From sequence record ON229909.1: a stretch of 64,000 nt of DNA. One strand, 5' to 3'. The notes beneath the pieces are model-generated. The model was given only the letters and a program-made list of their open reading frames with translations, was not told the DNA's origin and did not search any database. The position numbers and the translations under genes are program-made. Source of the DNA: Escherichia phage vB_EcoM_CE1. Positions 16,340 to 50,885 of this stretch are shown here, in pieces (the stretch's first letter is position 1; the number at the start of each line of letters is the position of its first letter).

Positions 16340-16726
16340 ATGGAAATCGGCAAAAAATATGAGTTAAATCCACACCGTATTAAATCTTTCATTGATATTA
16401 GTTCATCAAATGCTAATATGGTCAGCATCATTCAAGAAAATGGCGGTTGGTTTGAAGTTAAATCAATATCAAGTTTAGATGGCTTTGATTATGTAACCGA
16501 AATCATTTGTGCTAATGGCGAAATCTATTATAATGATGGCATAGGTGATGATTATTTTGAACTTAGTGAAGAAGAGTTTTATTGTTTCCGCGAGTATAAA
16601 GAACCGACTTCTGAAGAAGATGAAGTCGAAGACAAGATTTCTGGCGTAACAAAAATTCACTGCATTGTAGACGAAAACAATGTAGATGAAATCATTGAAC
16701 TTTTGCGAAAAACTTTCAAAAAGTAG
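16340..16726 (+). CDS. hypothetical protein (frd-proximal small ORF)
   Basis: 128 aa from ATG preceded by GAGGAAA (track ORF 16325..16726). Confidence 0.55.
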   Translation: MEIGKKYELNPHRIKSFIDISSSNANMVSIIQENGGWFEVKSISSLDGFDYVTEIICANGEIYYNDGIGDDYFELSEEEFYCFREYKEPTSEEDEVEDKISGVTKIHCIVDENNVDEIIELLRKTFKK

Positions 16727-16755
16727 TTTACAGTAGGGTAGTAGTGTGATACTAT
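16726..16755 (+). promoter_or_regulatory. early-type promoter
   Basis: GTTTAC, 18 nt, TACTAT upstream of ORF 16781. Confidence 0.4.
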
Positions 16756-16780
16756 TACCCTATCAACTAAGGAGAATAAA

Positions 16781-17276: not shown

Positions 17277-18066
<790 letters not shown>

Positions 18067-23572: not shown

Positions 23573-25160
<1,588 letters not shown>

Positions 25161-25163
25161 GCT

Positions 25164-25221
25164 GTTTACAAGTCCCTCGTGTTGTGTTATAGTAGTCTTA
25201 CTGACATAACACGAGGACTTT
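25164..25221 (+). promoter_or_regulatory. early-type promoter embedded in an RBS-sequestering hairpin, upstream of alc
   Basis: GTTTAC, 17 nt, TTATAG/TATAGT; inverted repeat CCTCGTGTT...AACACGAGG covers the GAGGA SD; 48-nt block repeated at 38573. Confidence 0.5.
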
Positions 25222-25224
25222 ATG

Positions 25225-25728
25225 ATGGATTTACAACTTATTACTACTGAGATGGTCGTTGAAGCATACGGTGATACTACAGATGGGATTTCTGTATTCA
25301 AAGGAAATCGTCGAGTTGGATATATCACCGATCTTAAGAAAGATTTAGCTAAGCAAGTCAAGCGGAAAACGACCATTAAAGAATATCGAAATCGTCGTCT
25401 TGAGCAAGCCCGTGATATGCTTCCTGATGCGGTTGAAGAGATGAAAGTCTTTTTAGAAAATCAGCTTGCGAAATACGATTGTGATGTGTTCATTAATCAG
25501 ACTCAACCTAATGTTCACATTAATAGCTGTAAATGCTATATCATCGTTAATCCTTTGACGGGAAAACATCGTCTTGGAATCAGTAATCCAAATCGTAGCG
25601 CATCAGATATGGCAGAAGATGTTGAGGCATGCTTTAAAATTTCTAAATCTCCAGCTGAACATCATATTTTAATTAACGGTCTTTCTCAAGACGATATTGT
25701 AGAGGTTATTAAAACTTTATGCATGTAA
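25225..25728 (+). CDS. alc: Alc transcription terminator/unfolding of host nucleoid
   Basis: 167 aa from MDLQLITTEMVVEAYGDTTDG...; matches T4 Alc. Confidence 0.9.
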   Translation: MDLQLITTEMVVEAYGDTTDGISVFKGNRRVGYITDLKKDLAKQVKRKTTIKEYRNRRLEQARDMLPDAVEEMKVFLENQLAKYDCDVFINQTQPNVHINSCKCYIIVNPLTGKHRLGISNPNRSASDMAEDVEACFKISKSPAEHHILINGLSQDDIVEVIKTLCM

Positions 25729-28469: not shown

Positions 28470-28499
28470 GTTTACAACATGGTAGAGTTGTGATATTAT
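28470..28499 (+). promoter_or_regulatory. early-type promoter
   Basis: GTTTAC, 18 nt, TATTAT; flanking inverted repeat GGTAGAG/CTCTACC. Confidence 0.4.
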
Positions 28500-28529
28500 A
28501 GCTCTACCAAAACAAATGAGGAAATAGAA

Positions 28530-31132: not shown

Positions 31133-31309
31133 ATGGCAAAACAAGCTAAAGCAAAGAAAGCAGTTGAAAAGAAAGTTGGTGATTCTAAACGCGCTGGTTA
31201 CAAGCGTGGGTCGAACTCTCGTATCAATCAAACTGTTGAGAAGATCATGCGCCGAGCACGTGCGGTTCTTCGAGATGATGCTTCTCGTTTTGGTAAGCAG
31301 AAAGCATAA
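31133..31309 (+). CDS. small basic hypothetical protein
   Basis: 58 aa from ATG MAKQAKAKKAVEKK...; part of track ORF 31091..31309. Confidence 0.4.
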   Translation: MAKQAKAKKAVEKKVGDSKRAGYKRGSNSRINQTVEKIMRRARAVLRDDASRFGKQKA

Positions 31310-31312
31310 GTT

Positions 31313-31340
31313 GAGGACTCCTTCGGGAGTCCTTTTTTAT
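31313..31340 (+). terminator. rho-independent terminator
   Basis: GAGGACUCC-UUCG-GGAGUCC hairpin followed by T-run. Confidence 0.6.
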
Positions 31341-31362
31341 TTTCCAAAGATTGCACAAAGTT

Positions 31363-31754: not shown

Positions 31755-31783
31755 GTTTACTTTGGTACAGGATATGATATTAT
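31755..31783 (+). promoter_or_regulatory. early-type promoter
   Basis: GTTTAC, 17 nt, TATTAT. Confidence 0.45.
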
Positions 31784-31820
31784 ATACCTGTACCGCAATT
31801 AAACATCTCGGAGAATAAAA

Positions 31821-32186: not shown

Positions 32187-32226
32187 AATAAAACAGGGGC
32201 TTCGGCCCCTTACTGAGGAAAATACT

Positions 32227-36133: not shown

Positions 36134-36141
36134 TATAAATA
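36134..36141 (+). promoter_or_regulatory. late promoter TATAAATA for alt
   Basis: exact TATAAATA ~24 nt upstream of alt ATG. Confidence 0.45.
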
Positions 36142-36164
36142 GAATAAACACTAGAGAGGATATG

Positions 36165-38213
36165 ATGGAACTAATTACAGAATTATTTGACGAAGATACT
36201 ACTCTTCCAATTACAAACTTAAATCCAAAGAAGAAAATACCGCAAATTTTTTCAGTTCATGTTGATGACGCAATTGAACAACCAGGCTTTCGTTTATGTA
36301 CCTATACATCTGGAGGTGATACTAATCGTGATTTAAAGATGGGCGATAAAATGATGCATATTGTTCCTTTTACATTAACCGCTAAAGGTTCAATTGCTAA
36401 ATTGAAAGGTCTTGGTCCAAGCCCAATTAATTATATCAATTCAGTTTTTACTGTTGCAATGCAAACAATGCGTCAGTATAAAATTGATGCTTGTATGCTT
36501 CGTATTCTTAAGTCTAAAACCGCTGGTCAAGCTCGACAAATTCAAGTTATTGCTGATAGACTTATCCGTAGTCGTTCAGGTGGCAGATACGTCCTTCTTA
36601 AGGAACTCTGGGATTATGATAAAAAGTATGCATATATTCTTATACATCGCAAAAATGTATCACTAGAAGACATTCCAGGGGTTCCGGAAATTAGTACCGA
36701 GCTCTTTACTAAGGTTGAATCGAAGGTCGGTGATGTTTATATCAATAAAGATACTGGAGCTCAAGTAACTAAAAATGAGGCAATTGCAGCATCTATTGCA
36801 CAAGAAAATGATAAACGTTCTGACCAAGCTGTAATCGTTAAAGTTAAAATTTCCCGTAGAGCAATTGCACAAAGTCAGTCATTGGAATCTTCTAGATTTG
36901 AAACACCAATGTTTCAAAAATTTGAGGCTTCAGCAGCAGAATTAAATAAACCCGCCGACGCGCCTTTAATTTCTGATGCTAACGAATTAACCGTTATTTC
37001 TACTTCAGGATTTGCATTAGAGAATGCTCTTAATAGTGTTACAGCTGGAATGGCATTCAGAGAAGCTTCTATAATTCCTGAAGATAAAGAATCTGATGTT
37101 AATGCAGAAATAAAAAATAAAGCTTTAGAAAGATTACGAAAAGAATCTATTACTTCAATAAAAACTTTAGAAACTATTGCTTCTATAGTCGATGATACTT
37201 TAGAAAAATATAAAAGTGCTTGGTTAGAAAGAAATATTAGCAAGCATTCGCATTTAAATCAAGATGCTGCAAATGAGTTAGTGCAAAATTCTTGGAATGC
37301 AATAAAAACAAAGATTATTCGAAGAGAATTACGTGGATATGCTCTTACCGTTGGATGGTCATTGCATTCTATAGTCGAAAATAAAGATTCATCTAAATAC
37401 ACACCGGCTCAAAAACGCGGAATTCGTGAATATGTGGGTTCAGGATATGTAGACATGAATAATGCTCTTTTGGGATTATATAATCCAGATGAGCGTACAA
37501 GTATTTTGACAGCACCCGAAATAGAACAAGCCATCGATAATTTAGATTCAGCCTTTAAAAATGGTGATCGATTGCCAAAAGGTATTACTTTATATCGTTC
37601 GCAACGAATGTTACCTTCAATATATGAAGCATTGGTAAAAAATCGAGTTTTTTATTTTAGAAACTTTGTGTCAACATCATTATATCCAAATATTTTTGGT
37701 ACTTGGATGACTGATTCATCTATAGGTGTTTTACCAGACGAAAAGCGTCTAAGTGTTTCTATTGATAAAACTGATGAAGGGCTTGTTAATTCTAGCGATA
37801 ATTTAGTCGGAATTGGATGGGTTATTACTGGGGCTGATAAGGTCAATGTTGTTTTACCCGGTGGAAGTTTAGCGCCTTCAAATGAAATGGAAGTCATTTT
37901 GCCACGTGGATTAATGGTCAAAGTTAATAAAATAACCGATGCATCTTACAACGATGGAACAGTTAGAACTAACAACAAGCTTATTCAAGCTGAAGTTATG
38001 ACTACAGAAGAACTCACCGAATCGGCAATTTATGACGGTGACCGTTTAATGGAAACTGGTGAATTGGTTACAATAACAGGTGATATAGAAGATAGAGTTG
38101 ACTTTGCATCATTTGTTTCATCAAATGTTAAACAGAAAGTAGAATCATCTCTTGGAATTATTGCGTCTTGCATAGATATTGCAAACATGCCTTACAAGTT
38201 CGTTCAAGGATAA
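36165..38213 (+). CDS. alt: Alt ADP-ribosyltransferase (packaged)
   Basis: 682 aa from MELITELFDEDTTLPITNLNPKKKIPQIF...; matches T4 Alt. Confidence 0.95.
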   Translation: MELITELFDEDTTLPITNLNPKKKIPQIFSVHVDDAIEQPGFRLCTYTSGGDTNRDLKMGDKMMHIVPFTLTAKGSIAKLKGLGPSPINYINSVFTVAMQTMRQYKIDACMLRILKSKTAGQARQIQVIADRLIRSRSGGRYVLLKELWDYDKKYAYILIHRKNVSLEDIPGVPEISTELFTKVESKVGDVYINKDTGAQVTKNEAIAASIAQENDKRSDQAVIVKVKISRRAIAQSQSLESSRFETPMFQKFEASAAELNKPADAPLISDANELTVISTSGFALENALNSVTAGMAFREASIIPEDKESDVNAEIKNKALERLRKESITSIKTLETIASIVDDTLEKYKSAWLERNISKHSHLNQDAANELVQNSWNAIKTKIIRRELRGYALTVGWSLHSIVENKDSSKYTPAQKRGIREYVGSGYVDMNNALLGLYNPDERTSILTAPEIEQAIDNLDSAFKNGDRLPKGITLYRSQRMLPSIYEALVKNRVFYFRNFVSTSLYPNIFGTWMTDSSIGVLPDEKRLSVSIDKTDEGLVNSSDNLVGIGWVITGADKVNVVLPGGSLAPSNEMEVILPRGLMVKVNKITDASYNDGTVRTNNKLIQAEVMTTEELTESAIYDGDRLMETGELVTITGDIEDRVDFASFVSSNVKQKVESSLGIIASCIDIANMPYKFVQG

Positions 38214-38216
38214 ATC

Positions 38217-38565
38217 ATGGAACTTATTACATAATTATTTGACGGCGCTTCGGCGCCGGTTGTTAACTTAAATCCTAAGCATAAAATACCGCAAATTTTT
38301 GCTATTCAAGCCGGCGAAGAAAGCGTGCTTCCTGGATTTAGATTTTGTACATACACCTCTGGCGGTGATACAGATAAAACGTTAAACCAGGCGACAAAAT
38401 GATGCATATCGTAATGATAGGTGTTAATGAGAAACTATCATTAGTTAAGCTTAAAAACTTGGGTGGAAATCCAATTGGTGTCATTAATGCTGTTTTGATA
38501 CTGCTCTTCAAACAATGAAACAGTATAAAATCGACGCATGCCTATTACGCGTACTAAAAAGTTCA
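38217..38565 (+). pseudogene. degenerate duplicate of the alt 5' region
   Basis: starts ATGGAACTTATTACATAA (MELIT then stop); downstream frames encode LFDGASAPVVNLNPKHKIPQIF, GFRFCTYTSGGDT, MMHIV, KQYKIDACLLRVLK, all alignable to Alt residues 1-125 but broken by a stop and frameshifts. Confidence 0.7.
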
Positions 38566-38572
38566 AAATGTA

Positions 38573-38633
38573 GTTTACAAGTCCCTCGTGTTGTGTTATA
38601 GTAGTCTTACTGACATAACATGAGGAACACAAA
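38573..38633 (+). promoter_or_regulatory. second copy of the 48-nt early promoter/hairpin block
   Basis: 48 nt identical to 25164..25211, followed by GAGGAA SD and ATG at 38634. Confidence 0.5.
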
Positions 38634-38924
38634 ATGAAATCTTCTTTACGCTTTTTAGGTCAAGAACTTGTAGTTGAAGGCGTTATTCCTGCTGATAATG
38701 CTTTTAATGAAGCAGTTTATGATGAATTTATCAAAATTTTCGGAACAGATAAAAAGTTTGGAATTTTTCCTTCTGAAAATTTTTCAAAGCCAGAACAGAC
38801 TGAAAGTATTTTCCAAGGTGTAGTAACAGGCAAATTTGAGTCAGAAGCTCCGGTAAAAATTGAAGTTTATATTGAAGACAGTTTAGTTGCTTCAGTTGCT
38901 GCTTTCATTTCATTCCGTAAATAA
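38634..38924 (+). CDS. hypothetical protein
   Basis: 96-aa ORF with SD, driven by the duplicated promoter block; followed by a hairpin. Confidence 0.55.
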   Translation: MKSSLRFLGQELVVEGVIPADNAFNEAVYDEFIKIFGTDKKFGIFPSENFSKPEQTESIFQGVVTGKFESEAPVKIEVYIEDSLVASVAAFISFRK

Positions 38925-38930
38925 AAATAT

Positions 38931-38948
38931 GGGGACCTTTCGGTCCCC
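38931..38948. terminator. bidirectional hairpin between convergent ORF 38634 and gene 54
   Basis: GGGGACC-UUUC-GGUCCCC. Confidence 0.5.
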
Positions 38949-38952
38949 ATTG

Positions 38953-50860: not shown

Positions 50861-50865
50861 TCTCA

Positions 50866-50885
50866 GGGGCTTCGGCCCCTTTCTT
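50866..50885 (+). terminator. UUCG hairpin terminator after hoc
   Basis: GGGGC-UUCG-GCCCC followed by T-rich tract. Confidence 0.55.

Follow-up and report, generated by a model that had tools for sequence, protein, structure and literature searches.

A repeated early promoter cassette upstream of alc and alt.-3 in T4-like phages and its predicted Shine-Dalgarno-masking hairpin

An early promoter cassette repeated upstream of alc and alt.-3

We analyzed a stretch of 64,000 nucleotides of Escherichia phage vB_EcoM_CE1 (ON229909.1), referred to here as the window, which belongs to Tequatrovirus (99.7% identity to vB_vPM_PD112) and whose plus strand corresponds to the minus strand of T4. Unless stated otherwise, all features described below, except the terminator-like hairpins, lie on the plus strand. 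At the first locus, rnlA (RNA ligase 1/tail fibre attachment; 24036 to 25160) is followed by alc, which encodes an inhibitor of host transcription (25222 to 25728). The gap between the rnlA stop codon at 25160 and the alc ATG at 25222 or 25225 is occupied by a cassette of 54 nt that serves alc (copy 1; 25164 to 25217), as delimited by exact search and promoter scan. The T4 annotation places the alc start at the second of these ATGs (25225). In phage LF73P3 (OZ035756, locus at ∼16533), CTTTATAATGG replaces CTTTATGATGG 3' of the alc cassette and the first alc ATG is gone, which supports the second ATG as the true start.

At the second locus, a late promoter, TATAAATA (36134 to 36141), lies just 5' of alt (ADP-ribosyltransferase; 36162 to 38213), and alt is followed by a decayed second alt copy (38214 to 38601; alt.-1/alt.-2 in T4), the 3' end of which enters copy 2 of the cassette (54 nt; 38573 to 38626, delimited in the same way). 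Positions 38214 to 38371, just upstream of copy 2, show 74 to 90% identity to 36162 to 36322 and are the decayed remnant of a duplication of the alt 5' region; an intact full-length second alt paralogue is found at this place in G28, BP32, phiC600P9, U115, EcNP1, KRT47, Sf21, and L14. Copy 2 serves alt.-3 (38634 to 38924; 96 amino acids, ATG at 38634). The alt.-3 unit is closed by a G+C-rich hairpin of 9 bp with T-runs on both strands (38929 to 38950; terminator scan), which separates alt.-3 from the convergent gene 54 and is likely a bidirectional terminator. Elsewhere in the window, two near-identical G+C-rich hairpins, CAGGGGCTTCGGCCCCTT (32194 to 32214 and 50864 to 50884, 18 nt exact), are probably intrinsic terminators with a common sequence. 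Upstream of each cassette copy lies a later-acting gene (rnlA or alt) and downstream an immediate-early gene (alc or alt.-3), with the cassette filling the space between them, and both loci keep their position across 7 to 9 Tevenvirinae genera.

The core of the cassette is a 48-mer, GTTTACAAGTCCCTCGTGTTGTGTTATAGTAGTCTTACTGACATAACA, which occurs exactly twice in the window, at 25164 to 25211 and at 38573 to 38620, both on the plus strand. A search allowing up to 3 mismatches detected no third copy in the window, and the 48-mer was absent from 100 shuffled sequences. A window-wide repeat census identified this pair as the longest exact repeat, the runner-up measuring 24 nt. The perfect 48-bp direct repeat at loci 13.4 kb apart that had been reported in a preliminary description of this DNA was thus confirmed by both exact search and census. 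The repeat moreover stretches to 54 nt with 53 identical positions and includes the GAGGA Shine-Dalgarno (SD) sequence, the sole mismatch being C at 25212 versus T at 38621. On either side of these 54 nt the flanks of the two copies diverge from the first base, and we found no sequence shared by alc and alt.-3 beyond the cassette.

The GTTTACAAGTCCCTCGTGTTGTGTTATAGTAGTCTTACTGACATAACA block was present in 489 phage records (T4 and Tequatrovirus records) at 914 places, indicating that most relatives have two copies, and in T4 itself 53 of the 54 positions are identical between the copies. GenBank phage records were used for this distribution because scans of the IMG/VR and JGI metagenomes for the block returned only 6 and 8 loci. 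The preliminary description had allowed for the two copies being an assembly artefact, which is ruled out by the presence of the block, mostly twice, in T4 and ∼490 Tequatrovirus records. A chance origin is likewise ruled out by the shuffles, the repeat census, and the ∼490 independent genomes. The identity of the pair also exceeds what a mere promoter consensus would impose, since the five other early promoter blocks in the window have only 14 to 35 of 54 positions in common with each other or with the pair.

Both copies show the arrangement TTTACA-17 nt-TATAGT, with 10 of 12 matches to the sigma-70 consensus and a TGn extended -10 (promoter scan), and both fit the PST/T4 early promoter consensus TTTACW-N17-TAYWAT. 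In copy 1 the -35 lies at 25165 to 25170, the TG at 25185 to 25186, the -10 at 25188 to 25193, and the SD at 25213 to 25217; in copy 2 the -35, -10, and SD lie at 38574 to 38579, 38597 to 38602, and 38622 to 38626. The usual 7-nt spacing after the -10 would place the +1 at block position 37, i.e., at ∼25200 and ∼38609. A sigma70-like early block ahead of alc and of the open reading frame at 38634, here identified as alt.-3, had been noted previously, together with a GAGGA SD and an ATG after each copy. These features are borne out at both loci, with the SD located inside the 54-nt match and the ATGs at 25222/25225 and 38634. In the GenBank record of JB75, the block carries a promoter annotation. 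In a T4 time course, alc and alt.-3 were classed as early RNA/early protein, and rnlA as early RNA/late protein, and alt was assigned to the late genes (PMC9697503). The literature that we searched yielded no mapped start site for these two early promoters, and the promoter pair itself may have been noticed earlier.

Predicted pairing of the promoter spacer with the SD sequence

A feature overlooked in the preliminary description is a predicted hairpin with the SD in its 3' arm, which probably accounts for the conservation of spacer and leader. As RNA, the leader plus SD (GACAUAACA(C/U)GAGGACUU) has its complement in the promoter spacer (AAGUCC-CUCGUGUUGUGUU). In the predicted fold the spacer forms the 5' arm, the -10 and +1 lie in the loop, and the leader and SD form the 3' arm of a nearly continuous helix of ∼22 bp in which the SD is fully paired. 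This hairpin, which is predicted for read-through RNA only, spans 25170 to 25220 at copy 1 and 38581 to 38627 at copy 2. The RNA of the whole block has a predicted folding energy of -26 to -29.5 kcal/mol (z = -4.4) for copy 1 and about -23.3 kcal/mol (z = -3.8) for copy 2, and the C/T difference between the copies corresponds to a G-C pair in copy 1 versus a G-U pair in copy 2. RNA beginning at the predicted +1 was unstructured at both copies. The predicted cost of opening the SD was 10.0 to 10.3 kcal/mol in read-through RNA versus 2.6 kcal/mol in RNA from the cassette's own +1 at copy 1, and 11.5 to 11.6 versus 1.6 kcal/mol at copy 2; opening the region from SD to AUG gave predicted values of 18 to 20 versus 2 to 4. 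An Rfam covariance-model scan returned no match at either copy at E values up to 1. Elsewhere in the window, at 31265 to 31348, a weak match to the Atu_C8 sRNA (31.4 bits versus a gathering score of 50; E = 0.006) is probably due to chance.

Transcripts that enter the cassettes from upstream are to be expected, since the terminator scan detected no terminator-like site between rnlA or alt and the downstream cassette, the late promoter TATAAATA at 36134 is a source of late transcripts crossing copy 2, and the mapped T4 middle promoters PnrdB+ and PI-TevIII point through denA and rnlA. According to the folding model, such read-through RNA would be blocked for translation at both cassettes. We propose that each copy is a self-contained early gene expression cassette of the promoter-early stem-loop (PeSL) type, which fits a strong early promoter of the T4 type, a short leader, and the SD into the ∼60 nt between stop and start and whose 17-nt spacer would double as an anti-SD. 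RNA started upstream, as middle-mode transcripts through rnlA or late transcripts through alt, would fold into the ∼22-bp hairpin and be inaccessible to ribosomes. RNA from the cassette's own promoter would be translatable because its start inside the loop removes the 5' arm. If only the latter RNA is translated, synthesis of Alc and Alt.-3 would be tied to the brief phase of early promoter activity, whatever the later read-through.

The rnlA-alc junction was examined in eight genera besides Tequatrovirus, and all eight have an early promoter cassette of ∼60 nt with a stem-loop around the -10/+1 region. The stems in these genera measure 9 to 13 bp. The 3' arm contains the SD in six of the nine genera (Tequatro-, Gelderland-, Karam-, Dhaka-, Jiaoda-, and Winklervirus), where the predicted duplex between spacer and SD has an energy of -15 to -23 kcal/mol (z = -3.2 to -7.7 versus shuffled spacers) and the SD is fully paired in the fold. 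At alc of Teguna- and Kanagawavirus, a 13-bp stem ends 2 to 4 nt short of the SD, and in Mosigvirus the hairpin at alc is confined to the spacer. In the six genera with a paired SD, spacer and SD covary: an SD of GGAGA is accompanied by UCUCC in the spacer and an SD of GAGGA by UCCUC. Inner pairs also change across genera (GC/AU/GU, GC/UA/CG, UA/AU, and UA/GC/CG). This covariation was read from an anchor-based pair table; a MAFFT alignment of the alc cassettes was dropped, since the register of the stem relative to the promoter differs by genus and makes the columns unusable. Across genera, G-U pairs are frequent and A-C is confined to the stem ends, which points to sense-strand RNA rather than a DNA cruciform as the structured molecule. 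Within Tequatrovirus, several stem substitutions yield A-C mismatches (positions 14, 18, and 19). As judged from these sequences, masking of the SD at alc is common and selected, though not obligatory.

Since SD occlusion is not universal, the more generally conserved feature is the stem-loop around the -10/+1 region, and this feature also fits the terminator or attenuator role that has been proposed for PeSLs. In such an explanation the stem-loop would act as a terminator, attenuator, or insulator against upstream transcription and the pairing of the SD would be incidental. Indeed, the stem-loop of one RB49/phi1 PeSL lowered the expression of lacZ to nearly the same extent as a strong terminator did (PMC2839356), and both the stems of Teguna- and Kanagawavirus alc and those of other early promoters in the window (at 16726, 28470, and 31755) stop short of the SD. 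However, at neither copy is the stem followed by a U-tract, and the terminator scan called neither, so that both lack the hallmarks of an intrinsic terminator. Furthermore, the tails of the two copies differ (CUUUAUG versus AACACAAA) while SD pairing is common to both, and a terminator would have no need for a spacer that tracks the SD (GAGGA versus GGAGA) in six genera. We therefore regard this explanation as rather unlikely.

As an observation on those other promoters of the window, 7- to 8-bp stems flank the -10 at 16726 to 16775, 28470 to 28515, and 31755 to 31800 (arms GTAGGGTA/TACCCTAT, GGTAGAG/CTCTACC, and GGTACAGG/CCTGTACC), and the SD is free in each. A stem-loop around the -10/+1 region thus seems typical of the early promoters in the window.

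A nearly continuous helix of ∼22 bp, as predicted in Tequatrovirus, might also serve as a site for RNase III or another processing activity that parts upstream and downstream mRNAs. RNase III needs longer stems than the 9 to 13 bp seen in the other genera, where SD pairing is kept nonetheless, and a processing site is in our view highly improbable. Masking of the SD in read-through RNA remains the explanation that we favor for the hairpin.

Evidence for sequence exchange between the two loci

Variants of the cassette were compared in a sample of ∼21 to 25 Tequatrovirus genomes read directly, supplemented by BLAST tables. Several derived states occur at both loci. Among the genomes read directly, alt.-3 carries the three-site haplotype T11-T15-A16 in phiC600P9 and Sf21 and the two-site haplotype A29-A32 in five genomes; at alc, the former is present in U115 and the latter in ESh36 and G28. 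The single states C27, A16, and A32 were each found at both loci. Database-wide, T11-T15-A16 occurs exactly in 29 records, at alt.-3 wherever the annotation identifies the locus, and accompanied by one further change it occurs at alc in OE5505, UTI-E4, U115, and ph0021. A29-A32 occurs exactly in 42 records, mostly at alt.-3, and is present at alc in REP2/REP3, KMB39, KMB40, 11B_SA_NWU, FL08, and G28. KMB39 has one haplotype per locus, and G28 has A29-A32 in all three of its cassette copies.

The third cassette of G28 (MG867727, locus 17345 to 17900, minus strand) results from an exact 351-bp tandem duplication, which takes in the 150 nt immediately preceding the cassette, all of the cassette, and the beginning of alc, and which creates a truncated alc ORF. 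We considered this copy as a rearrangement mediated by the cassette and rejected it, because the duplication junctions are not at the cassette. In Gaprivervirus, a partial alc-like ORF lies between rnlA and alc in PSD2001 (OK254198, locus 17579 to 17812) and also in VR7 (two places), indicating that the rnlA-alc junction was duplicated independently in another genus.

The presence of two- and three-site haplotypes at both loci is very unlikely to result from recurrent mutation, and it is best explained by short-tract gene conversion between the two cassettes. Recombination in T4 is reported to work on homology patches of less than ∼50 bp (Singer et al. 1982, as cited in PMC2839356). Haplotype sharing of this kind is direct natural evidence for the exchange of ∼50-bp regulatory cassettes between nonallelic sites of T4-like phages, which the PeSL model had proposed mostly from indel patterns. 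A simpler history, in which an old duplication is held identical by purifying selection on promoter and hairpin alone and no exchange is ongoing, would draw on the plausible function of every part of the block and on the nearly identical sequence at both loci in T4 and most relatives. It does not account for derived haplotypes of three and two sites that appear at both loci in different genomes, or for the swapping of cassette types between loci in two genera whereas the two promoters are unlike in other genera, and we consider it quite improbable.

This swapping became apparent in the comparison of alt.-3 promoters. A hairpin of 4 to 6 bp inside the spacer and a free SD characterize the alt.-3 promoter in Mosig-, Gapriver-, Gelderland-, Karam-, Marfa-, and Dhakavirus; among the genera compared, the alc-type cassette is found at alt.-3 in Tequatrovirus only. 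The alc and alt.-3 promoters of the other genera are unlike each other. Each of the two Tequatrovirus cassettes is most similar to the other (similarity, 0.89), and the next-best matches of the Tequatrovirus alt.-3 cassette are the alc cassettes of Dhaka- and Karamvirus. In Mosigvirus the best match of the alc cassette is the alt.-3 cassette of the same genus (0.79), followed by the alt.-3 cassettes of other genera. By parsimony, and in a small sample, the simplest reading would be replacement of whole cassettes, from alc to alt.-3 in Tequatrovirus and from alt.-3 to alc in Mosigvirus. The modular promoter shuffling suggested in the preliminary description gains support from the multisite variants found at either locus and from these type swaps in Tequatrovirus and Mosigvirus.

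The same description had proposed that the repeats could delete or invert the intervening ∼13 kb. Inversion is impossible because the repeats are direct. A crossover between the copies would delete alc, pseT, cd, 31, rIII, 30, and alt. T4 genes 30 and 31 are essential, so that deletion products would be lethal dead ends rather than contribute variation. The terminal redundancy of T4 is too small for the reciprocal duplication of 13.4 kb. The interval is retained at ∼13.4 to 16 kb in all 21 genomes examined across it. Although recombination on patches as short as those cited above and the deletions and mini-circles produced by PeSL pairs in RB49/phi1 speak for such events, it is extremely doubtful that the repeats matter mainly as substrates for deletion or inversion of this interval.

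Taken as a whole, we consider it moderately probable that the two copies are cassettes of an early promoter with an SD-masking hairpin, kept alike by gene conversion and copied from alc to alt.-3. The alc-type cassette would be ancestral at alc, with a copy of it having overwritten the alt.-3 promoter in the lineage of Tequatrovirus, and gene conversion would have maintained the near-identity of the copies since. If true, this would explain why the spacer and leader of a sigma-70 promoter, which ordinarily vary freely, have been preserved to the base at both loci. Tight confinement of Alc and Alt.-3 synthesis to the first minutes would be relevant to host takeover and counterdefense, as Alc stops host transcription and T4 escape from the CmdTAC defense maps to C-terminal extensions of Alt.-3 (PMC11618068).

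Comparison with known systems

What is new here is the SD gate predicted by the folding model and the evidence for cassette conversion from sequence comparison. Since the elements are all of known kinds and the phage is the best studied one, we see this as a refinement rather than a surprise. Tentatively, and with somewhat less confidence than in the cassettes themselves, the comparison suggests a conserved Tevenvirinae class of self-insulating immediate-early cassettes with the spacer as anti-SD, in which alc, and in Tequatrovirus also alt.-3, may be translated strictly from its own early promoter. Such a class would mirror in time the late-promoter hairpins of T4 e, soc, 49, and I-TevI, and its cassettes would move as units between loci by gene conversion, one way in Tequatrovirus and the other way in Mosigvirus.

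As promoters, the two copies resemble the T4 early (Pe) class (Hinton 2010, PMC2988021) in the -35 GTTTAC, the 17-nt spacer, the TGn extended -10, the A/T-rich upstream region, and the early expression of the downstream genes. Unlike typical early promoters, which in the window have only consensus positions in common (14 to 35 of 54), the pair has the whole spacer and leader in common.

As cassettes, they resemble the PeSLs of T4-type phages (Arbiol et al. 2010, PMC2839356; Comeau et al. 2014, PMC4122927, including the PST/T4 pair). Both copies consist of an early promoter and a stem-loop, reaching from spacer to leader, between the upstream stop and the downstream SD and ATG. PeSL stem-loops lie between the -35 and -10, overlap either box, or precede +1 directly (PMC2839356). 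Like PeSLs, which were proposed as homology patches for modular shuffling, the cassette is repeated within the genome, and recombination occurs between copies; here it takes the form of conversion or replacement at two fixed loci, whereas PeSLs are associated with gain and loss of ORFans and with mini-circles. In contrast to PeSLs, which favor hyperplastic regions beside ORFans, both loci lie in a conserved region. The present stem-loops also differ in being devoid of terminator features and in having a 3' arm that reaches the SD, which makes a translational rather than a termination role likely.

The closest parallel to the proposed gate is found in the hairpins of T4 e, soc, 49, and I-TevI (PMC3014915), and alc and alt.-3 are absent from the examples in section 29 of that T4 review. 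As in those genes, the SD would lie in a helix in the long RNA, and an internal promoter would yield a shorter RNA without the 5' arm, here by a predicted start in the loop ahead of the 3' arm. The internal promoter in those genes is late (TATAAATA), whereas the cassettes have an early promoter of the sigma-70 type and no TATAAATA within the block. The temporal logic would thus be reversed, with the hairpin blocking middle and late rather than early translation, and the cassettes would represent an early-phase counterpart to the classic hairpin control of late genes in T4.
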